DNA of 64,000 nucleotides, taken from positions 1,120,001-1,184,000 of the forward strand of contig OZ244742.1 in the NCBI GenBank assembly GCA_965219415.1, given 5' to 3'. Both the position numbers and the translations under genes were made by a program. This DNA comes from Candidatus Marinacidobacterales bacterium. Its GTDB lineage: Bacteria > Acidobacteriota > Vicinamibacteria > Marinacidobacterales > DATDRI01. The first letter of the stretch is position 1, and the number at the start of each line of letters is the position of its first letter. Positions 1 through 34,587 of this stretch are shown in pieces. The notes under the pieces were generated by a model. It made no database searches. It was not told the origin of the DNA and saw nothing but the letters and a program-made list of their open reading frames with translations.

Positions 1-1489
1 CGTCTTCGGTGGCAATCTGCTCATAGGTTTTGCCTGCTTTGATTCGGTCGAGCCAGGAGAGGGCGTTGGCGATATTGCGCAGGAGTGTGCGGTCGACGGA
101 TTTCGTGGGGTTGCCCAGAACGAGCTTGGTCTCGACGCCGCGTCGACGCAAGCGGAACGGTGCGTGGATGCGGAGTGCGTCCTCGCGAATGCGGTCGGGT
201 CCCATAGACAGGCAATCAGCGAACGTATTGCGGTCGAGCAGGATGGACACAGAGCCTGGGCTGATATCGACCCGCCGGATGAAACGGAGCAGGCAGGCTG
301 CCGAGGTACTATCATCATTACTACCGGAACACAGCCCGTCTAAAAAGCGACGCACCGAGGCGAGCTCTTGCATCGTCGGAGTGTGGATCAACGAGGCCGA
401 GAAGGTCGTGGCATCCACATGCTGTCGGATGAGATGCACGACGGTCTGTTCGAGCATCGGGGCGGGCAGTCGCCAGCCGGAGAAGTCCTTTTGGCCACTG
501 TGCTGGATGAGGCGCCGGGAGACGTAGTAGCGGAGCCGTTGCCCGTTTTTCTTTTTGGTGTGGCTCGGCGTCAGCCGGTCCCCGGTCTCATCGAAGAGCT
601 TGCCTGCCAGTGGGGAACGGGTTGCACGGCCCTTCGTCGTGCGTCTCCTTGGTTTGGCAGCCCCTGCCTGCAGCTGCGTTTGGACCGCGTCCCAGAGCTC
701 CGGAGCAATGATCGATGGATGCTGGCCCTCGTAGACACGCCTCTGGTGCCGGATGCGGCCGGCGTAGAGAGGATTGGTCAGCAGGCAGTGGAGGTGTCCG
801 CGACGAAACGGCAGCCCGCCCGTTAGGGTTCCATCCGCGGCGAAGCGTCGCTTGGTGCGCAGTCCCAGACGGTCCGCGTCGGCCTTCACCTGCCGGAGCG
901 TTCCGTGCTTTCGGTACAGCGCATAGAGCGTCCGGACCGTTTCGGCCTCAGCCTCGTTGATGCGCAGCGTGCGCTCGTCCTTCTCATAGCCGAGCGGTAC
1001 GCGGCCGCCCATCCATAGTCCCTTGCGCTTGGAGGCAGCGACCTTATCGCGGATCCGCTCGGCCGTGACTTCTCGCTCGAATTGTGCGAAGGACAGCAGC
1101 ATATGCAGCGTCAGTCGTCCCATGCTGGTCGCGGTGTTGAAGGACTGAGTCACCGAGACGAAAACCGCGCCGGCCGCCTCGAGTCGCTCGACGAGCTTTG
1201 CAAAGTCGGAGAGGGAACGGGTCAGCCGGTCGACCTTGTAGACCACAATCTGCTCGACGAGACCGGCATCGATGTCGGCGAGCAAGCGCTGTAGGCCCGG
1301 GCGCTCCAGGGTTCCTCCCGAGATCCCCGCGTCCTCGTAGACGGTTGGCAGCAGCACCCAGCCCTCCGCTTTCTGGCTTGCGACATACGCGGCGCAGGCC
1401 TCTCGCTGCGCATCGAGGGAGTTGAAATCCTGTTCGAGACCCTCTTCAGCGCTCTTTCGGGTATAGATGGCGCAGCGGATTTTTGTCAT
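1..1489 (-). CDS. Large serine recombinase (resolvase + recombinase domains), runs off the left edge
   Basis: Manual translation from ATG 1489: MTKIRCAIYTRKS..NSLDAQRE..YEDAGISG..RPGLQRLL..VYKVDRLTRS..SFAQFERE..GLWMGG. Open to position 1, so absent from the ORF track. Confidence 0.92.
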   Translation of the reverse strand, partial: MTKIRCAIYTRKSAEEGLEQDFNSLDAQREACAAYVASQKAEGWVLLPTVYEDAGISGGTLERPGLQRLLADIDAGLVEQIVVYKVDRLTRSLSDFAKLVERLEAAGAVFVSVTQSFNTATSMGRLTLHMLLSFAQFEREVTAERIRDKVAASKRKGLWMGGRVPLGYEKDERTLRINEAEAETVRTLYALYRKHGTLRQVKADADRLGLRTKRRFAADGTLTGGLPFRRGHLHCLLTNPLYAGRIRHQRRVYEGQHPSIIAPELWDAVQTQLQAGAAKPRRRTTKGRATRSPLAGKLFDETGDRLTPSHTKKKNGQRLRYYVSRRLIQHSGQKDFSGWRLPAPMLEQTVVHLIRQHVDATTFSASLIHTPTMQELASVRRFLDGLCSGSNDDSTSAACLLRFIRRVDISPGSVSILLDRNTFADCLSMGPDRIREDALRIHAPFRLRRRGVETKLVLGNPTKSVDRTLLRNIANALSWLDRIKAGKTYEQIATED

Positions 1490-25332: not shown

Positions 25333-26175
25333 ATGAAGGGTTTGAGCGGGCTTCGGGTCGTCAGTTTCGAGAGCCGCCGTTCGGACGAGATGGCGAACCT
25401 CATCCGGAACCACGGAGGCGAGCCCATCCAAACCCCGTCGATGCAAGAGATACCGCTCACCGAGCAGAGAGAAGCGCTCGGGTTCGGAGAGGCGCTCGCA
25501 GGTGGCGACTGTGACGTGCTGATCCTTCTGACCGGTGTCGGCACCCGCATGTTGGTGGACACGCTCGCCACCCGGCGGCCACGTGAGGTTGTCCTGGAGG
25601 CGCTAGGAAAAACCGCTCTCGTCTGTCGGGGACCTAAACCCGTTGGCGTACTCAAGAAAATGGGCCTCCGGCCTACGATTACCGTGGGTGAGCCCAACAC
25701 CTGGCGCGATTTGTTGAGGGCACTCGATGACGAGCTGCCCGTTTCCGGGAAACGAGTCGCAGTCCAAGAATACGGAGCTCGTAATCAGGAGCTCCTCGAC
25801 GGCCTCAGAGAGAGAGACGCTGTCGTCACGCCCGTCCCGGTCTACGGATGGGCACTCCCCGACGACACCACGCCTCTTAGGAACGCCATCGAGCGCGCTG
25901 TGGCCGGCGAGATCGACGCTGCGGTGTTTACCAGCGCCACCCAGGCGGATCACCTTTTTCAAGTAGCGGAACAGCAGGCCCGAGCAGACGAGCTTGGGGA
26001 TGCCCTTCGCACCCGAATCCTGGTCGCTTCCATCGGCCCGATGACGAGCGAAGCCCTTGCGCGTTTGGGGATCGAGGCGGATATCGTTCCCGAGCATCCC
26101 AAGATGGGACACTTGGTGGCGGCGTTGGCGGAAGGCGCGGCACCGGGGCTCGAGAAAAAGCGCGGCAGGGGCTAG
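25333..26175 (+). CDS. hemD: Uroporphyrinogen-III synthase
   Basis: SFESRR, LTGVGT, RGPKP, PVYGW, FTSATQ, SIGPMT. Confidence 0.88.
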   Translation: MKGLSGLRVVSFESRRSDEMANLIRNHGGEPIQTPSMQEIPLTEQREALGFGEALAGGDCDVLILLTGVGTRMLVDTLATRRPREVVLEALGKTALVCRGPKPVGVLKKMGLRPTITVGEPNTWRDLLRALDDELPVSGKRVAVQEYGARNQELLDGLRERDAVVTPVPVYGWALPDDTTPLRNAIERAVAGEIDAAVFTSATQADHLFQVAEQQARADELGDALRTRILVASIGPMTSEALARLGIEADIVPEHPKMGHLVAALAEGAAPGLEKKRGRG

Positions 26176-26819
26176 TGCGGGAGTCGGGACAGCAGCTCGC
26201 CCACGTCGCCGATGTCATCCATGTCGCGGCTTGCTGAGCCTCCCGACACCGCGATGCTGACTGCCAGCGGATCGTTCGGCTCCCCCGCTGCCTCGACTTG
26301 GATGTACTCCGCCTCGGGATAAAGCTCACCGAGGAACGACCGCAGCCCATCTTTTACCGCGTCGAATGCCTCTGGCGTTCGCGGTGCCAAAAGACGGTTT
26401 TGGATCTTGAAGAGTGCCTCGTCGTAGCGAAAGTGGAGCCTTCCTTCGAGCGCCGGTTCCGCCTGGAGCCGCTGGCAAGCCTTCAGCGCGGCTCCGAAGG
26501 CGCGACTGAGCCGCGACCGCACATCGCCTTCTGTCCGCCGCCTGCGAGAGTATAGAAGGCCCAGCCGTCCCCCGGATTGGTCCAGGCTGTACTGGCCTTC
26601 ATGACACATGAGCAAGACGCCCGGACCATGATAGACGTGGGAATAATCGGCCACGTCGATCATCACTTCATCTTCCAAACGGCGGGACTGTATCCATTCA
26701 TGGAAGATCGGGATGAAGTCTCTGGGTCCCAAATCGGTGGAGTCCACCGCGTAGAACTTGATCGCGAGCTCGTGCGCTTCGAGCGGACTCACAACCCTGG
26801 CACTAGACGACTGCGACAT
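26172..26819 (-). CDS. Hypothetical protein, last gene of the cys/siroheme operon
   Basis: FIPIFHEWIQ..IDVADYSHVYHGPGVLL; overlaps the sulfite reductase stop. Confidence 0.7.
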   Translation of the reverse strand: MSQSSSARVVSPLEAHELAIKFYAVDSTDLGPRDFIPIFHEWIQSRRLEDEVMIDVADYSHVYHGPGVLLMCHEGQYSLDQSGGRLGLLYSRRRRTEGDVRSRLSRAFGAALKACQRLQAEPALEGRLHFRYDEALFKIQNRLLAPRTPEAFDAVKDGLRSFLGELYPEAEYIQVEAAGEPNDPLAVSIAVSGGSASRDMDDIGDVGELLSRLPH

Positions 26820-29190
26820 CCAACTGCTCCAATAAACGCCCGTGGCAGGCGTAGACCGCCTCGATAAACAATTGAGCTTCTTCGATCCGATGGTGAGCGG
26901 CGTCTGTCGTGAAGTTCCCGTTGGCGCTTAACTCTTCGCAGTGAATGCGGAAAAGATAGTTGCCGAATTTTCCTCCCGCATACGGATCGAAGAAGAGTTT
27001 GGTGTCGTAGAAGCGGGTCCGGAATTCATGGATAATCTTGTCAGCACTGTCAGGCCCGTCAGGCCTGAGAGGATCGTCTGGCGGGCCGACCGCTAAATCG
27101 ATCTCACCGTTTTGGGAGCGTACCAGCGCCGCGGCCGCATCGAGCATTGCCCGAAAGGCGGTCTTCGCCGAATCGCGCGGGTTCCCGGCGTCCAACTGCA
27201 CTTGTGCCTCGAAGACTTGACGCTCGCTGGCGGCAAGTGAGAAATCGAAACGCGAGACCACCTCGCCGGCGCACTCGCCCTGCCCCATGTCCCCTAGTGT
27301 GAACTCGCGCGGATCCCCCCAATCGGAGTACAGGATCCGGTCTTGGTCGTAACTCGGAATCGCGGTCAGGTCGTCGATCCTCGAGCGCACCTTGACCTTA
27401 CCCATTCGGCCGATGAAGTCCTGAAACTTCTCGTTCGGCTTTCCATCACGCCGAAACCACTCGGTGATTCGGGTTACCACGTCGGGAATTCGTTTCGATG
27501 GTACCGCACCCACTGCCAACCCAAAAGATTTCCCATTCTCGGTCCACTGCCCACCCAGAACGACCTGAAAGTGTGGGACGGTGCGGCCGCCACTCTTGCG
27601 ACTCACTCCATAGAAACCGAGGTCGGCCACAGAGTGTTGACCACAAGAATTGAAGCACCCGCTGACTTTGATGCGCAGACCGTTGAGCGAAGCATCGAAG
27701 GCGAGGTTCTTCTCCAAGAGACGCGTCCGAAGCTCCTCGGCAAGGCCCCGCGAAGATGCGATCCCCAACTTGCAGGTGTCGGTGCCCGGGCACGCGGTGA
27801 CATCGACGATAGAGCCTGCGCCTGGCTCGCCCAGCCCCAATTCCTTGAGCGCGGAGTAGAGCTCGGGCAAATCGGCTTCGGCAACCCACCGAAGAACGAT
27901 GTTCTGATCGACGGTCGTGCGAACCGAATCGCCGCTGAACCGCCGTGCCAACTCGGCGAGTCGTCGCATCTGATGAGAAGACAGATCCCCCAGGGGGAGC
28001 GTGATAGCTGCCACCGAGTAGCCGGGCTGGCTTTGCTGGTAGACGTTGGTTGCCGTCCACGCTGCAAAGCCCTTGGGGTAGGGGCCCGGTCCCAGACGTG
28101 CCGAACGACGAGCCGGCTGGTCGGTTGCGGCCGTCAGAAAGACCTCCGGCACCGACCGACCGGCTTCGAGCGCGGAGACAAGCCCAGTCCATCGCGCATC
28201 CGTCGGAAGCTTTTGTCGTTCCTCCAGCACCAGGCGCCGAAACTCGTCGACCCCTAGGCTCGCGACCAAGAACTTGAGACGGGCGCGGGCCCGATTCTTC
28301 TTCTCGCCCAGTCGCGCGAAGACACGGCACACGGCTTGCACGGTGGGCAACATCTCTTCTACCGGCAAGAACGAATCGAAAAGCTTGGCCTGGTAGGGTA
28401 CGGCACCCAGACCGCCCCCCACGTAAAGCTCGAACCCCGGACGGCTGCGACCGTTTACGGTCTCGGTCTTCGCGATGAAACCGAGGTCATGAAAAGCGGT
28501 CAGCCCACAGGACTCTTCCTTGCACCCAGAGAACGCGATCTTGAACTTTCTACCGAAGTCCTGGGCGTCGGGGTGACCGAGCAGGAAGTAGGTCAAAGCC
28601 TTGGCATAAGGCGTGACGTCGAAGGTTTCCCCGCGACACACGCCCGACAAGGGGCAAGCGGTGACGTTCCGCACCGAATTGCCGCACGCTTCTTGCGTGG
28701 TGATGCCGACCGCGCCGAGACGTCTCATCATGTCCGGGGTGTCGTCGATATGGACGAAATGTAGCTGGAAATCCTGCCGGGTCGTGACGTGGACGATACC
28801 GTCGGAATAGTCGTCGGCGAGCTCGGCAAGAACACCCATCTGCTCCGGCGTCACGCTACCGAACGGGATCTTGATGCGTTGCATGCCGGGAGCATCCCAG
28901 AGCGTGTTGGGGCCCTTCACCACCGAGCCGGAGGGGTACTCGAGCTTCTGGCTTCGCCGACCGTCGTGTCGTTGACCGTTGTCGTACCGCTGTCCGTAGA
29001 CGCCCCGGCGGAGCCGCGTCTCGTTGAAAAGCTTCTCGTCCAGTTTGCCCTGACGGCGAAGCTCGACCTCTGTCTCGAAGATGCCGATCTCGCGCGCCAG
29101 CTCCACCGGCAATTTGTGGGTGAGCTCATGTTTCCAACTGTGCTCCGAAGATGAGGTGGTCGAAACCCGAGGCACGGTAGGAGTGCTCAT
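26803..29190 (-). CDS. Siroheme/[4Fe-4S] sulfite (nitrite) reductase with extra C-terminal helical domain
   Basis: HVTTRQDFQLH, GRKFKIAFSGC, ACPGTDTCKLG, KVSGCFNSCGQH; cys context. Confidence 0.9.
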   Translation of the reverse strand: MSTPTVPRVSTTSSSEHSWKHELTHKLPVELAREIGIFETEVELRRQGKLDEKLFNETRLRRGVYGQRYDNGQRHDGRRSQKLEYPSGSVVKGPNTLWDAPGMQRIKIPFGSVTPEQMGVLAELADDYSDGIVHVTTRQDFQLHFVHIDDTPDMMRRLGAVGITTQEACGNSVRNVTACPLSGVCRGETFDVTPYAKALTYFLLGHPDAQDFGRKFKIAFSGCKEESCGLTAFHDLGFIAKTETVNGRSRPGFELYVGGGLGAVPYQAKLFDSFLPVEEMLPTVQAVCRVFARLGEKKNRARARLKFLVASLGVDEFRRLVLEERQKLPTDARWTGLVSALEAGRSVPEVFLTAATDQPARRSARLGPGPYPKGFAAWTATNVYQQSQPGYSVAAITLPLGDLSSHQMRRLAELARRFSGDSVRTTVDQNIVLRWVAEADLPELYSALKELGLGEPGAGSIVDVTACPGTDTCKLGIASSRGLAEELRTRLLEKNLAFDASLNGLRIKVSGCFNSCGQHSVADLGFYGVSRKSGGRTVPHFQVVLGGQWTENGKSFGLAVGAVPSKRIPDVVTRITEWFRRDGKPNEKFQDFIGRMGKVKVRSRIDDLTAIPSYDQDRILYSDWGDPREFTLGDMGQGECAGEVVSRFDFSLAASERQVFEAQVQLDAGNPRDSAKTAFRAMLDAAAALVRSQNGEIDLAVGPPDDPLRPDGPDSADKIIHEFRTRFYDTKLFFDPYAGGKFGNYLFRIHCEELSANGNFTTDAAHHRIEEAQLFIEAVYACHGRLLEQLDVAVV

Positions 29191-29963
29191 GCCGAGACTC
29201 CTTTCTCTAAAGCAAGGAAAAGGGGATCTTCGATACCAATGCGATCGGCGAGCGAAACGACCTCGCCGATGACCAGCGTGCCGGGAACGTTGCCGGGAAC
29301 GTTGGATGCCGGGAGCGGAATCTGATCCAACTCGGAGAGAGGGCTCACCCAGGTCGCAGCCTGTGGTGTCGACGCTCCCAGGATGAGAGCCGCCGGCGTA
29401 TCCGGCCTCCAGCCTCGAAGCATCAGGAACTCCGAAAGGTCGCGGCGATTGGCGACTCCCATCAGCACCACCAGTGTGATCGAATTGGGTGTGACGGCCT
29501 CGAGCAGGGGTCGGTAGGATGCCGCGTCGTGTCCCGACACCACCATGAACCCGGCCGTCAGACCACGGTGCGTCACCGGGATACCGGCGAGAGCGGGAGC
29601 TGCCACCGCGGAGCTGATTCCCGGAACGACCTCGAAGGGGATTCCTGCCGCGGCGAGAGCGAGAGCTTCCTCCCCGCCCCGACCCAAAACAAAGGGATCG
29701 CCGCCCTTGAGACGCACTACACGTTGTCCTCGGCGCGCGGCGTGGATCATGATGCGATGGATCGTCTCCTGCGGAGTCGATTTTCGGCGCGCCCGCTTAC
29801 CGACATCGAAGGTGCGCGCCTCGCGTGCGAGGGCCAAGATTTCCGGTGACACCAAGGCATCGTGCAAAATGAGATCGGCCTCGCTCAAACGCCGCGACGC
29901 CTTCATCGTCAGGAGCTCCGGATCGCCGGGCCCGGCGCCGACCAACGAAACAAACCCAGTCAT
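29187..29963 (-). CDS. cobA: Uroporphyrinogen-III C-methyltransferase
   Basis: LVGAGPGDPELLT, RLKGGDPFVLGRGGEE, GIPVTHR. Confidence 0.93.
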   Translation of the reverse strand: MTGFVSLVGAGPGDPELLTMKASRRLSEADLILHDALVSPEILALAREARTFDVGKRARRKSTPQETIHRIMIHAARRGQRVVRLKGGDPFVLGRGGEEALALAAAGIPFEVVPGISSAVAAPALAGIPVTHRGLTAGFMVVSGHDAASYRPLLEAVTPNSITLVVLMGVANRRDLSEFLMLRGWRPDTPAALILGASTPQAATWVSPLSELDQIPLPASNVPGNVPGTLVIGEVVSLADRIGIEDPLFLALEKGVSA

Positions 29964-30529
29964 CGCTCACGCTCCTCGTAAATCTCGTTCAGGGCCTTCA
30001 GTAGACGCGGGCGACGCTCGGCCATGGGAACACCTTCTTGACGCCATAGGCTACGCGCCTCGTGGGCGACGCTCGTCCACCGGTCCAAATCGCTGGGTAG
30101 CAGATGATCGAGGGCCTCCCGTATCAGGCCGGACAAGGCGGGGGCCGCCCCGTTGGTGGAAATACCCAACGTAACTCCCGAGCGACGCACGACTCCCGCC
30201 CCGTAGGCGGTCGCACTCGCAATATCGTCCACCGCGATGACGAAGATGCGACGCTCCGTTGCGGCCTCGGACACTTCTCGGTTCACTTCTGGGGGCGCCG
30301 CCGACACCACGAACCAGCAACCGTCGAGATCGCTCGGTCGAAAACGGCGAACGTGAAGACCCAGGTTCGGGTGAGCGATCTCGAACGTGATCTCGGGCGC
30401 CACCAGTGCGACGCGAGCACCCGCCTCCAAGAGGCTCTTGGTCTTTGCTTCTGCGACCGGGCCGCCTCCTACGACGAGGACGCGGCGACCGTCGAGCTTG
30501 AGGAAGATCGGAAAAAGAGGCGTGGACAT
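29960..30529 (-). CDS. Precorrin-2 dehydrogenase / sirohydrochlorin ferrochelatase (CysG N-terminal-like)
   Basis: Start at MSTPLFPIFLKL; VVGGGPVA, ISTNGAAPAL. Confidence 0.88.
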   Translation of the reverse strand: MSTPLFPIFLKLDGRRVLVVGGGPVAEAKTKSLLEAGARVALVAPEITFEIAHPNLGLHVRRFRPSDLDGCWFVVSAAPPEVNREVSEAATERRIFVIAVDDIASATAYGAGVVRRSGVTLGISTNGAAPALSGLIREALDHLLPSDLDRWTSVAHEARSLWRQEGVPMAERRPRLLKALNEIYEERER

Positions 30530-30531
30530 GA

Positions 30532-31275
30532 CTATGACCCCGTCGGCTGCAACACCGGCACCAGCACGAGTCCCGATGCCCGGTTGTGAATTCCGCATTC
30601 GGTCTTGGCGCTGCCACGCCATCGGCCGGCGCGAGGATCTTCTCCGGGTCGTACCGGGCTCGTACACGGCATGCAACCGATGCTTGGATAGCTCCGTTCG
30701 TGGAGCGGGTTAAAGGGAACGTCGTGCTCTCGTACATATTCCCAGACGTCGCGTGTCGTCCACTCCACCAGCGGGTTGACCTTCACGAGCCCGAACTTCT
30801 CGTCGAGCCCGACGAGCGGTGCTTTGGCCCTTTCGGGAGTCTGGTCACGCCGCAGAGCGCTGATCCAAGCCTCCGCCCCTTCCAATGCCGCTCGTAGCGG
30901 CAGGACTTTTCTCACTTCGCAGCACCGGTCCGGATCTCGTTCCCACAAGGCCTCGCCGAAACGATTCGCTTGCTCGGAGATGGAAAGCTCCGGTCGTACG
31001 GCGCGACCGCGGAGGTCGTAGCGTTTTTCGAGCTTGCTCCAAAGGGCATAGGTCTCTTCGAAGAACAAACCGGTGTCGAGAGTGAAAATGTCCACCGGCA
31101 ACTGATTCCTGCCAATGATGTCGATGAGCACACACCCTTCCACCCCGAAGGCGGTTGCCATGACGAGCCGGGGCGCGAAACGCTCCGACGCCACGCGGAG
31201 AATGTCGGTGGTCGCACGGACTTTGAGAAGACGGTCCAAGTCACGGATCTGCTGTTCTCGCTCTAGCTGCTGCAT
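30532..31275 (-). CDS. cysH: APS/PAPS reductase, Fe-S type
   Basis: LDTG, DRCCEVRK, SIGCMPCT, RAGRW, ECGIH. Confidence 0.92.
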   Translation of the reverse strand: MQQLEREQQIRDLDRLLKVRATTDILRVASERFAPRLVMATAFGVEGCVLIDIIGRNQLPVDIFTLDTGLFFEETYALWSKLEKRYDLRGRAVRPELSISEQANRFGEALWERDPDRCCEVRKVLPLRAALEGAEAWISALRRDQTPERAKAPLVGLDEKFGLVKVNPLVEWTTRDVWEYVREHDVPFNPLHERSYPSIGCMPCTSPVRPGEDPRAGRWRGSAKTECGIHNRASGLVLVPVLQPTGS

Positions 31276-31313
31276 CTTTACCTCGACCCCAGTGCCCTCA
31301 CGGTCCCGGCCCC

Positions 31314-31349
31314 AAAAAGCAAAAGGCCCAGGTCCTTTGGACCTGGGCC
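31314..31349 (-). terminator. Intrinsic terminator in the cysH 5' leader
   Basis: GGCCCAGGTCC-AAA-GGACCTGGGCC followed by TTTTGCTTTTT, about 40 nt before the cysH ATG. Confidence 0.85.
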
Positions 31350-31378
31350 ATGAGCCGCTTGGTTGCGGTTAATCTTGT

Positions 31379-31525
31379 CTACATAAAGCTAAGCCGCGGA
31401 GAATCCGAATCCTTCAATCGGCGGCCGACAGACATACCGAGTGCTGTTCCAAGTGGCACATGGCCCGGTCCCCCGGGCCGGCTACACTTGCAGGACCTCC
31501 GCATCAGCATGTCGCCAAATCTCAT
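31379..31525 (-). CDS. Putative attenuator leader peptide (MRFGDMLMRRSCKCSRPGG..., 48 aa)
   Basis: ATG about 4 nt after the predicted TSS; Cys-Lys-Cys codons immediately precede a GC hairpin; stop lies just before the terminator. Confidence 0.5.
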   Translation of the reverse strand: MRFGDMLMRRSCKCSRPGGPGHVPLGTALGMSVGRRLKDSDSPRLSFM

Positions 31526-31535
31526 CTCTTGAACC

Positions 31536-31592
31536 ATTCTGACCTGCCGGTCGGCTGGTGTCAAATTAAAATATGACTTTTTTGGTCGGAAT
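31536..31592 (-). promoter_or_regulatory. Sigma-70 promoter plus Rrf2-like operator for the cys operon
   Basis: TTGACA (31564-31559)-17 bp-CAGAAT (31541-31536); upstream ATTCCGAC-CAAAAAA-GTCATAT. Confidence 0.6.
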
Positions 31593-31779
31593 CTAATATC
31601 CTTATAATCAGTTGTTTACGTGGCCACACCCTGTATACGGTCGGCATTCAACCATGGGCTATTCCGCGGCCCGTCAGGCGCGGTGAATGTCCGGAGGGTG
31701 GGTTATCGGCGTCTGACGGTGCTCACTCTTGGCTCCCAGGGTCAATTTGACGCCCTCATGAGTTATCATAAAGATATCC

Positions 31780-32013
31780 ATGGATAAGAAAGAGCGCACT
31801 CGACTCATCGAGCGGTTCGCCTCTGGACTCAAGTATCCCTACCTCTTCCTGCTCATCGCCGCCGTCTTCTTCCTGGATCTCATCGTGCCCGACGCGATCC
31901 CCTTCGTCGACGAGATTCTCCTGGGGCTGGCGGCCGTTCTTCTGGGTACATGGAAAGAGCGCAAGGGGGTGGAGTCGAAACCGCCGATGAAAAACGTCAC
32001 TCCGGAGCGCTAG
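31780..32013 (+). CDS. Small membrane protein (DUF6116-like)
   Basis: LKYPYLFLL..DLIVPDAIPFVDEILLGL..WK. Confidence 0.75.
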   Translation: MDKKERTRLIERFASGLKYPYLFLLIAAVFFLDLIVPDAIPFVDEILLGLAAVLLGTWKERKGVESKPPMKNVTPER

Positions 32014-32015
32014 AT

Positions 32016-32466
32016 TTACTTCCCGTTCGGCTTACTAAAAGCATTCGCGTTCTTTCCGACCCACTTCCCGATCGCCTCCACGACTTCTGCACTCGCCTGG
32101 TACAGATCGCCTTCTCCGACGAAGGTCTTAAGGGTATCCCCAACGGTAAGAACCGCCTCCACCCGAATCCGCCGTTGCTCCGGGCTCCATTCCTCCTTAG
32201 GTCAAGAAGGTCGTTTCCCCGAAGGGAGCGAAGGAATCGACCCCCACTAGCTCGATCTGAGCGTGCGCTGGCTCGGGCTCGGTGACGACGTCGAACCGGT
32301 TCTGCTCGCGACCTTCGGCCGCTAGTCTCCGGCAAAAAAACGCCGTCAGATTGTCCGGGGTCTCGCTTCCGCTGAAACAGTAAAGGAGGGGTCGCCGGGA
32401 TTCTTGGAGAGGGGGTGGACCCAGCGAGAATGCGACTGAGAGTATGATGCCCAAGACGATGCTCAT
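32016..32466 (-). pseudogene. Secreted hypothetical protein, frameshift near 32205
   Basis: Signal-like N-terminus; an alternate frame continues PKEEWSPEQRRIRVEAV..KPNGK*. Confidence 0.45.
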
Positions 32467-32598: not shown

Positions 32599-34587
32599 GT
32601 GACTCGAAAAGATTCGTCGGCGCCCCGGAGCCCCTCCGCGCTCAGCCGATGGCTTTCGAAATACCCGCTGCTCACTCTGGCCACCCTCGGCTTCGGAGCG
32701 GCGGGTGTTCTACTCTGGCACTTCTCACGGCTGTCTTCCGAGCTGAGAGAGGCAGCGACGATAGAAAGTGCCGCCCGGTACTCCGAAGTGCTCGCCGAGT
32801 TTCGAACGATCTACACGTCGGAGGTGGTGTCTCGGCTACGACCTCAGGGCATCGAAGTCACTCACGACTACCGATCGAAAGAACGTGCCATCCCACTCCC
32901 CGCCACGCTGGCCTGATTCTTGGCGAACGAATCGGCAGAAATGGGTCCTCCGTCCGGGTGAGGCTCTATAGCGAATACCCTTTTCCGTGGCGTGAAGACG
33001 GGGGTCCGAGAAACGAGTTCGAACGGGCTGCCCTCGGCCATTTGAGGCGAACGCCGAACCGACCCTTCTTTCAATTCGCCGAGCTCCAGGGTCGACCCAC
33101 GCTGCAGTACGCAACGGCAGATCTCATGAGATCCCAGTGCATAGGTTGTCACAACTCCCACCCCGACAGTCCCAAAAGGGACTGGGCAGTGGGAGACGTG
33201 CGAGGCGTCCTCGAGGTCATCTTACCGATGGACAACGTGGAAGCGGTGGCTCGAACTGGGCTCAGAGGCACGTTGCTCCTGACATTGACCCTCATTCTGA
33301 CGGGCCTTGGTCTACTGGCCGTCGTAATCACCGGGCTCCGGCGCTCCTGGAAGATGGAGGAAAGACTGCAGGCACAACTGCGCCATTCTCAGAAGATGGA
33401 AACTATCGGAACGTTGGCGGGCGGCATCGCTCACGATTTCAATAACGTTCTGACTCCCATCCTCGGCTACGCGAACATGGCCCTTCGAGACACCCCTCCC
33501 GAAAGCCGCACCTATTCCGACATTCAGCACGTCGTCAGCGCCGGCAAACGCGCCAAAGAGCTCGTGAATCAGATTCTGACATTTAGTCGACGGACGGAGT
33601 GAGCCGGAGCGCAAACCGATCCAGATCGCACTCATCGTCACCGAGGCGCTGAAACTTCTCCGCTCTTCCCTGCCGTCCACGATCGAGTTCCGCCAAAACA
33701 TCGACCCGGATTGCGGTACTGTGCTTGCCGATGCGACCCAGATTCACCAGGTCCTTATGAATCTGTGCACTAACGCCTTTTTCGCCATGAGCGAGAACGG
33801 AGGGATGCTCGAAGTGAATCTGGATGTCGTGGAGTTCGACGACGAACTCGCGCGACCCCATCCCAAACTCGCTCTCGGACCTTATGTGAGGCTGACCGTC
33901 AGCGATTCCGGCCATGGAATGGATCCCGAGACCAGGGACCGCATCTTCGAACCGTTCTTTACGACCAAGGGCGTCGGCAAAGGGACCGGCCTCGGCCTTT
34001 CTGTAGTCCATGGAATCGTCGTGAACCACGGCGGCCAGATCACTGTATACAGCGAGCCCGGCTTGGGAACTACTTTCCACGTCTACTTGCCGCGCTCGGA
34101 GGCCCCGGCAGAGGAGCGAAAGGCGGCCCGCGTCCACCCGGAGGTCGTCATCACCGGCAGCGAACAGGTGTTGGTCGTGGATGATGACGAAGAGGTCGCT
34201 CGAATGGCGGAACAAATGCTGAAAAGGCTCGGTTACCGCGTAACGGCGTTCACCAACAGCGCCGAAGCCCGGGATACGTTCCTCGCCCACCCCGAGCGAT
34301 TCGACATCGTCATCACGGATCAGACGATGCCCCAGCTAACCGGCGTCGAACTGGCCAAGGAGCTGCTCGCCGCCCGGCCCGACCTACCCATCATTCTGAT
34401 TAGCGGTTTTAGCGAGCTCATCACTGGGGCGAAGATCAAGAAACTCGGGATTCGGCACTACCTCATGAAGCCCCTGGTCGGCGGCGAGCTTGCGGCTACG
34501 ATCAGACAAGTCCTAGATAAGGATGATGAAAGGGAAAAAACGAGACGCAAGAGGAGGGATGAGCGATGGCCCAAATTCTTGTTGTAG
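32599..34587 (+). pseudogene. Hybrid sensor kinase (heme c-binding DUF3365-like + HisKA + HATPase + REC), two frameshifts
   Basis: CIGCH heme motif, IAHDFNN, MNLCTNA, FEPFFTTK..GTGLGL, VVDDD..TDQTMP; breaks near 32910 and at ACGG x2 near 33590. Confidence 0.85.

Follow-up and report, generated by a model that had tools for sequence, protein, structure and literature searches.

Classical leader-peptide attenuators control transcription of the trp, his, phe, thr, leu and ilv operons. Here we describe a candidate for a cysteine-specific counterpart in a 64,000-nucleotide (64-kb) stretch of contig OZ244742.1 (assembly GCA_965219415.1) from Candidatus Marinacidobacterales bacterium, an acidobacterium of the class Vicinamibacteria; this stretch is hereafter the window, whose positions serve as coordinates throughout. 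On the minus strand of this window, a leader region precedes an operon that begins with cysH. We consider it likely that this leader is a ribosome-mediated leader-peptide transcription attenuator that senses cysteine via charged tRNA-Cys and thereby gates the cysH-sirC-cobA-sulfite reductase operon. As in the classical attenuators, there is a short leader open reading frame (ORF) with codons for the end product, a set of mutually exclusive 1:2, 2:3 and 3:4 pairings, a terminator before the first structural gene, and a segment 1 positioned to be masked by a stalled ribosome. Unlike them, the leader would sense cysteine, precedes a sulfate-assimilation and siroheme operon, and resides in an acidobacterial host. 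It also lacks room for a Shine-Dalgarno sequence, its ORF continues for 34 codons beyond the sensor codons, and it carries an extra outer helix (P0).

Leaders with Cys codons have been described in other bacteria. In Mycobacterium smegmatis, polycysteine leaderless ORFs attenuate translation, and the available text of the preprint, posted in 2020, states that cysteine upstream ORF (uORF) attenuation was undescribed to its authors' knowledge (Canestrari et al., 10.1101/834739). The resemblance to the window's leader lies in a leaderless or near-leaderless short Cys ORF before cysteine or sulfur genes, and in stalling at Cys codons, predicted in our case, that relieves attenuation. As the same portions of the preprint present the mycobacterial system, its Cys tract pairs with the Shine-Dalgarno sequence of the next gene to give translational control without a terminator, whereas the window carries a terminator/antiterminator pair, and its Cys codons pair with segment 2 in predicted folds rather than with the cysH ribosome-binding region. 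Mycobacterial leaders, compared here by description rather than by sequence, have at least two consecutive Cys codons, whereas the window has Cys-Lys-Cys (C-K-C) and many of its relatives have consecutive codons. The window's leader is not a member of this translational class.

Comparative genomics of Actinobacteria in 2005 identified candidate Cys leader peptides before cys and cbs operons (Seliverstov et al., PMC1262725). These are likewise short ORFs with runs of Cys codons upstream of sulfur operons, but the accessible text reports no conserved terminator hairpins and suggests Rho, in contrast to the strong, conserved intrinsic terminator of the window. In a 2021 survey, the predictions include uORFC-8-2, a uORF of the terminator type that precedes cysS in Rhodobacterales and has two Cys codons in tandem (PMC8632094). 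Ribosome-mediated attenuation is predicted there too: the AUG is conserved, as are two Cys codons inside the first stem, and an intrinsic terminator follows. As described in the available part of that survey, uORFC-8-2 precedes cysS in alphaproteobacteria and has tandem Cys codons 14 and 15, whereas the window's leader precedes cysH with Cys codons 12 and 14, a distinction drawn by description. In the accessible portions of other papers, regulatory Cys codons in M. tuberculosis are treated in a translational sense only (2026; PMC13236596), and Acidobacteria are mentioned in connection with attenuators or leader genes that do not concern cysteine (PMC4833913 and PMC2965389).

A preliminary description of this leader, made from the DNA letters alone, had remarked that no terminator-type Cys attenuator was known for such an operon in this kind of organism. 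In the texts available to us, with subscription journals and survey supplements outside the scope, we likewise came across no account of a Cys attenuator, either from Acidobacteriota or preceding cysH. The broader novelty that the remark implied is reduced by uORFC-8-2, whose prediction is set out in the accessible text of the survey (PMC8632094). The elements of the leader, with lengths in nucleotides (nt) or base pairs (bp), are as follows.

31536-31564, minus strand: sigma-70-type promoter from a consensus scan, with -35 box TTGACA at 31564-31559, a 17-nt spacer and -10 box CAGAAT at 31541-31536.
31379-31525, minus strand: leader ORF of 48 codons, with ATG at 31525-31523 and stop codon TAG at 31381-31379.
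31484-31492, minus strand: sensor codons, Cys12 (TGC, 31492-31490), Lys13 (AAG) and Cys14 (TGT, 31486-31484).
31504-31513, minus strand: 5′ arm of outer helix P0, GACATGCTGA, in codons 5-8, paired with 31440-31431.
31431-31440, minus strand: 3′ arm of outer helix P0, TCGGTATGTC, from the single-sequence fold and RNAalifold.
31462-31479, minus strand: hairpin P1 (segments 1:2), GGCCCGG, loop GGGA and CCGGGCC, whose segment 1 begins 4 nt past the Cys14 codon.
31449-31471, minus strand: antiterminator strand (extended segment 2), GGACCGGGCCATGTGCCACTTGG, paired with 31362-31339.
31339-31362, minus strand: segment 3, CCAAGCGGCTCATGGCCCAGGTCC, which pairs with segment 2 and supplies, with its last 11 nt, the terminator's 5′ arm.
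31314-31349, minus strand: intrinsic terminator (segments 3:4) from a consensus scan, with an 11-bp GC-rich stem at 31349-31325, loop AAA and U-tract TTTTGCTTTTT at 31324-31314.

The promoter, the near-leaderless ATG, the two Cys codons, hairpin 1:2 and the 11-bp terminator with its U-tract are all located where the preliminary description had placed them. Specifically, the promoter is one of only two promoter-like sites that a consensus scan detects in 1.8 kb, compared with 0.5 expected from shuffles. An exact TTGACA occurs in 9 of 9 orthologous leaders, all of which have 9-10 nt between the -10 box and the ATG. The ATG lies 10 nt past the -10 box in the window and 4-14 nt past it in relatives. 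From this promoter geometry, we infer a 5′ untranslated region of roughly 0-4 nt. Because the start codon follows the -10 box by 9-10 nt, there is no room for a Shine-Dalgarno leader. Transcripts would begin at or close to the AUG, and the attenuator is probably leaderless. A query of public sequencing runs for 30900-31700 listed no RNA data set. The encoded peptide begins with MRFGDMLMRRSCKCS (the reading of the ORF is also given as MRFGDMLMRRSCKCSRPGGPGH). Directly upstream of the -35 box is an AT-rich block (31565-31640, minus strand; ...GATTATAAGGATATTAGATT...AAAAAAGTCATATTTT) that orthologous leaders across the order have for the most part kept; this may be an UP element or a site for a transcription factor, which would add control at the level of the promoter.

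The 219-nt leader has a predicted folding energy of -92.8 kcal/mol, compared with -76.2 +/- 5.1 kcal/mol for dinucleotide shuffles (z = -3.2), and 2 of 200 shuffles are as stable. In the fold, the nucleotides of the Cys codons pair with segment 2 in an inner helix between P0 and P1 (RNAalifold, eight leaders). The preliminary description had noted an 8-nt complementarity between segments 2 and 3 (GGGCCATG at 31466-31459 with CATGGCCC at 31352-31345). This core is present, although its extent was understated: the pairing spans 18 bp (31466-31449 with 31362-31345) and grows to 23 bp when P1 is open (31471-31449 with 31362-31339). Of the 11 nt in the 5′ arm of the terminator, the resulting antiterminator buries 10; it also has CCGGGCC in common with P1, so that the alternative structures exclude each other. 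The terminator, in turn, ends 38 nt before the cysH ATG at 31275.

This arrangement is not unique to the window. Among 41 genomes of the order, 10 have cysH, and we used the 9 full-length loci, leaving out a partial match of 73 amino acids (L010). The same leader is present at all nine, which represent six genera, and this recurrence of the whole arrangement shows that it is not a chance pattern. Each locus has TTGACA, an ATG 9-10 nt past the -10 box, TGC-NNN-TGT, a hairpin 4 nt later, GCCACTTGGA, a stop codon in or by a TA(A/T)GTAG motif, CCAAGCGG and a terminator. TGC-NNN-TGT occurs in 10 of 10 copies with AAG, GCG, GCA or GAG as the middle codon, and the choice of TGC or TGT at the two Cys positions never swaps. 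Similarly, the ORF is open in all 10 copies (40-53 codons), its ATG is conserved in all 10, and in 9 of 10 it ends at or next to the TA(A/T)GTAG motif. Between the ATG and the Cys codons, insertions and deletions keep the reading frame, as does one of 9 nt in L009, whereas the peptide encoded past the hairpin is not conserved. In L007 and L008, a stretch of about 55 nt is read in different frames owing to a 1-nt deletion and a 1-nt insertion, and both frames stop at the same TAA. This comparison rests on L007 from an unpublished genome (G007), and no other conclusion does.

One genome of the order, G034, carries a second, divergent copy of the leader on the other strand of its locus (L009), before a sirC-cobA operon. 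The sensor of this copy is C-E-C and its ORF again ends at ATGTAG, and its hairpin, GGCCCAG/CTGGGCC, is changed on both sides with the pair retained. In G034 the operon is split into divergent cysH and sirC-cobA units, each with one Cys leader (L009 positions 970-1181, minus strand, and 1279-1477, plus strand), and the two leader promoters stand back to back within about 100 nt. The window's own 8-Mb genome yielded no second copy when searched with an nhmmer profile of the leader. A pattern scan of genome contigs returned 24 stretches, of which 5 are relatives already in the set and the other 19, which lack a profile match, were taken as chance.

Structural conservation was assessed in an alignment of eight leaders of the order, with slid pairing partners as controls. 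P1 is 100% paired and invariant in 8 of 8 leaders, P0 is paired in 88.8% of cells, and the terminator, present in all 10 copies of the order, is 96.6% paired. P0, P1 and the terminator are jointly 94.6% paired, compared with 15-45% when slid. The 18-bp 2:3 pairing is 86.7% paired, and the 23-bp antiterminator reaches 88%, compared with 19-48% when slid. Taken as a set, the 1:2, 2:3 and 3:4 structures are 87-100% paired (15-50% when slid). RNAalifold independently recovers P0, P1 and the terminator as a long 5′ hairpin followed by a terminator. Within the order, this 80-nt 5′ hairpin (P0, the inner helix and P1) has very high nucleotide conservation.

Leaders of related design extend beyond the order. 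We sampled 401 genomes of the class Vicinamibacteria, of which 135 have cysH at E <= 1e-40, and obtained upstream DNA from 110 of these; the 25 omitted are among the lowest-scoring. A total of 106 upstream regions are at least 500 nt long and form the denominator for a filter that demands three or more Cys codons in a row, a stop codon within 45 codons and also a terminator within 120 nt. The filter is passed by 41 of the 106 regions in the sense orientation versus 0 of 106 in the antisense orientation (reverse complement). A looser criterion, two adjacent Cys codons (CC) or C-x-C, gives 57 versus 6 of 106, although one of the 57 (G106) looks spurious. Five further leaders are visible by eye but are missed by the terminator filter (L036, L037, L040, G056 and G067). 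The preliminary description had named conserved Cys codons in relatives as a mark of such a system; the TGC-NNN-TGT of the order and these runs elsewhere bear it out.

In the class leaders, runs of 3-7 Cys codons occupy the leader position and are followed by a hairpin and a terminator, and typical peptides are M..MCCCCTSARG, MHARCMCCCSQARV and VTGCARTVCCCCCCPEAHWAPELTV. C-S-C, C-L-C and CCGC variants occur in other lineages as well. In 41 of 41 poly-Cys leaders, the distance from the last Cys codon to the start of a hairpin is 0-7 nt (median 1), the stop codon lies 11-24 codons past the run, and the terminator begins 25-69 nt (median 30) after the stop. A promoter-like site is found in 22 of the 41, and starts located 3-14 nt past the -10 box are distributed 21:1:1 among the three frames in favor of that of the Cys run, a bias that argues for translation from a very short or absent 5′ untranslated region. 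Such an in-frame start is present in 19 of the 41. The C-K-C form is tied to the poly-Cys forms by a leader in the window's own order (G153) that has six consecutive Cys codons (CCCCCC) before a terminator nearly identical to that of the window.

Of the 169 codons in the Cys runs, 139 are TGT, and 37 of 41 leaders (loci L036-L123) end their run with TGT. In the window's genome, 33% of the Cys codons of long open frames are TGT, a cross-genome comparison that is indicative only. This preference, unexpected for GC-rich genomes, could reflect slower decoding via G-U wobble, or RNA pairing.

Beyond the class, we examined 20 regions upstream of cysH from other Acidobacteriota families; 9 of them have a run or cluster of Cys codons followed by a terminator, whereas none of these 20 has an antisense run of at least three Cys codons. 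Named records that share the leader motif are metagenome-assembled genomes of Vicinamibacteria and 'Candidatus Marinacidobacterales' (Acidobacteriota). The element is best filed among the classical leader-peptide transcription attenuators, as a Cys-specific family that appears to be spread through the Acidobacteriota. Where a leader is lacking, cysH mostly seems to sit within an operon, preceded by another gene. A classifier labels 46 of 49 regions without a detected leader as 'internal to an operon', which counts too many, since chance alone produces long open frames in GC-rich DNA; L036, L037 and L040, among the 46, carry leaders. In many Vicinamibacteria (L035, L038, L039, L043, L045, L047-L049, L053 and L054), cysH directly follows a membrane-protein gene with no leader between them. 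This membrane protein may be a sulfite exporter of the TauE/SafE type, which it resembles.

The switching function of the window's leader was examined by placing a ribosome footprint of 28 unpaired nt (from -15 to +12 relative to the first base of the A site) at every codon. In free nascent RNA ending in segment 3, the probability of P1 is 1.00 and that of the antiterminator core is 0.00. These values are inverted, to 0.00 and 1.00 respectively, when the A site is at Cys14 through Arg16. With the A site at Cys12 the antiterminator core reaches 0.29. At codons 18-50 the core is at most 0.02, and P1 is back from codon 27 on. The reading of the leader as a Cys-sensing attenuator, put forward in the preliminary description, is thus supported by the codons, the conserved pairings, the lack of an Rfam match (see below) and this switch in nascent folding.

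These results suggest the following mechanism. Transcription would start at, or a few nt before, the leader AUG, and a ribosome would translate the 48-codon leader. When Cys-tRNA is ample, the ribosome would pass codons 12 and 14, and behind it the 5′ domain (P0, the inner helix with the Cys codons, and P1) would refold and sequester segment 2. With segment 2 locked, segments 3:4 would form the terminator and transcription would end at 31324-31314. When Cys-tRNA is scarce, the ribosome would wait with UGU (Cys14) in its A site and its footprint over segment 1. The strand at 31471-31449, now free, could then pair with 31362-31339 as this leaves the polymerase; the terminator's 5′ arm would be buried, and polymerase would read through into cysH.

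Several observations weigh against this mechanism. The window's leader has only two Cys codons, and these are not adjacent. A ribosome at codons 2-7 also yields the antiterminator, by removing P0 and thus opening the domain, an effect that is not specific to the Cys codons. The structure therefore sets a window for sensing that is about 17 codons wide and has the Cys codons at the 3′ edge. At full length, masking the Cys14 footprint abolishes P1, but the terminator retains an equilibrium probability of 0.99, and forcing the antiterminator costs 3.7 kcal/mol (-61.3 versus -65.0 kcal/mol). Among the 41 poly-Cys leaders, the full-length equilibrium probability of the terminator rises at and after the Cys run, and segment 2/terminator-arm duplexes are weakly better than shuffles (median z = -1.4, with 7 of 41 below -2). 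Finally, two-sided changes occur in just one pair of the off state and two pairs of the antiterminator, most pairs being invariant, and the observed covariation scores are reached by 65, 19 and 18 of 500 shuffles.

The preliminary description had looked to compensatory changes in 2:3 and 3:4 and to folding with the stalled-ribosome footprint held unpaired. The pairings are indeed kept across relatives, but compensatory changes are sparse; with few varying pairs and shuffles that match the scores, the structures are conserved yet unproven by covariation. The footprint flips nascent RNA from P1 to the antiterminator as anticipated, whereas the full-length equilibrium still prefers the terminator. 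Because the terminator wins at full-length equilibrium, the model needs kinetic trapping, with an order of folding set during transcription. The trp attenuator likewise relies on folding order during transcription. The effect is only small in a scan of truncated RNAs over the 41 poly-Cys leaders, with 0.69 when the ribosome is at the Cys run, 0.63 in free RNA and 0.50 once the ribosome has moved on by 5-7 codons.

The two non-adjacent codons and the equilibrium folds bear on a first alternative, in which the window's leader is a relic: a poly-Cys descendant that no longer responds to cysteine and whose terminator is a constitutive damper or is otherwise controlled. The longer Cys runs of its relatives and a fold that favors the terminator would fit such a history. 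However, C-x-C and the 4-nt spacing to P1 are kept in 10 of 10 copies and six genera, plus the paralogous copy, and other lineages also have C-S-C, C-L-C and CCGC forms. Moreover, trpL functions with two Trp codons. Two Cys codons are also sufficient in mycobacterial leaders according to the authors, in the available text (10.1101/834739). We regard a relic as very unlikely.

A second alternative holds that the 5′ domain (P0, the inner helix and P1) is an aptamer, or a binding site for a protein or tRNA, that directly controls the terminator, with the ORF being incidental. The very high nucleotide conservation of the 80-nt hairpin in the order, and Cys codons that never exchange TGC and TGT, are what such a domain would predict. 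Against it, a scan of 30800-32400 with Rfam 15 finds no riboswitch or leader family, and returns just two matches to microRNA models (E = 0.51 and 5.6) that are far below gathering scores. The S-adenosylmethionine riboswitch, which the preliminary description had singled out for exclusion, is thus absent from the matches, and the 11 related loci give 0 matches at E <= 0.1. Moreover, what distant relatives retain is the Cys codons, the in-frame start (21:1:1) and the spacing of the hairpin, whereas the domain's sequence is not kept, and insertions and deletions between the ATG and the Cys codons preserve the frame. There is accordingly only a faint chance that this domain acts without the ORF.

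Third, the promoter and strong terminator could delimit a free-standing gene of about 215 nt for a small RNA or small protein, with the terminator before cysH by accident and cysH under its own promoter. Indeed, the unit has both signals, and an attenuated transcript would exist in any case. We find no promoter-like site in the 38 nt between the U-tract and cysH, and the unit never occurs apart from cysH or, in L009, from sirC-cobA, with no other copy in the 8-Mb genome. The post-hairpin peptide is unconserved, and one relative is frameshifted over about 55 nt. A separate gene is highly improbable on these grounds. Least credible of all is control at translation or via Rho, which is suggested by the mycobacterial polycysteine leaders, the sole experimentally studied Cys leaders and, in the available text, ones that sequester a ribosome-binding site (10.1101/834739), since the cysH ribosome-binding region (GGGGTCGAGG, about 31293-31284) is unpaired with the Cys tract in predicted folds and a canonical terminator with U-tract is conserved in all copies.

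Within the Cys-attenuator interpretation that we favor, the invariance of the 5′ domain permits one further conjecture. In this order, an ancestral poly-Cys attenuator may have become a two-codon C-x-C sensor within a strictly conserved 80-nt hairpin, and the invariance of its nucleotides, including the fixed TGC...TGT, could mean that the domain receives a second input in addition to stalling, for instance from a sulfur metabolite, a protein or contact with a tRNA. We assign this scenario a slim chance. If true, the element would be a hybrid of a leader-peptide attenuator and a riboswitch-like element.

The genes under the proposed control are the following.

30532-31275, minus strand: cysH, a CysH-family adenosine phosphosulfate or phosphoadenosine phosphosulfate reductase, the first regulated gene (Pfam PAPS_reduct, 2.1e-48; NCBIfam NF002537, 259.6 bits against a cut-off of 154).
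29960-30676, minus strand: sirC-like gene with a siroheme synthase N-terminal domain (Pfam and NCBIfam).
29187-29963, minus strand: cobA-like gene for a tetrapyrrole methylase of the uroporphyrinogen methylase type (Pfam and NCBIfam).
26803-29190, minus strand: NirA/Sir-type sulfite reductase of 795 amino acids (Pfam and NCBIfam).
26172-26819, minus strand: last ORF of the operon, 215 amino acids, which shares 17 nt with the end of the sulfite reductase gene and matches nothing in Pfam or NCBIfam.

Upstream of the leader promoter is a divergent small ORF (about 31785-32010, plus strand; MDKKERTRLIERF...) for a hydrophobic protein of about 75 amino acids, under the 80-amino-acid cut-off used here for ORFs, which is kept at the same position in 6 of 9 loci (L001-L003 and L006-L008). 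Further along, a sensor kinase is apparently split into a part with Tll0287-like and HisKA domains (32649-33602, plus strand) and a part with HATPase_c and receiver domains (33721-34587, plus strand), separated by about 118 nt; a frameshift, a true split or an assembly error could account for this. Elsewhere in the genome, a regular-expression scan for other Cys-codon leaders with terminators gave 99 raw matches, of which two that are plausible by form precede nuoA-like and ABC-F-like genes; these were rejected as chance. Outside the window, contig C3 of genome G000 carries a dispersed repeat of about 18 copies (for example near 1861821, 2594567, 3075109 and 4543359) that share ...GACAVCCW-stop, the same hairpin-like GCGCGCGGCGAAGGTCGTGAGCGC and a T-run. 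This repeat may be an element resembling repetitive extragenic palindromes or miniature inverted-repeat transposable elements.

If our interpretation is correct, a terminator-type Cys leader guards an operon for sulfate reduction and siroheme synthesis. Cysteine has long been without a classical attenuator, the studied cases being translational (mycobacteria) and the terminator type having been predicted for cysS in Rhodobacterales only. The family offers a testable handle on sulfur regulation in abundant but poorly studied bacteria of soils and the sea. Its members form a natural series, from C-x-C to seven Cys codons, with which to ask how many hungry codons an attenuator needs. They are also likely cases in which a ribosome that loads on a 5′-terminal AUG has to keep up with the polymerase.

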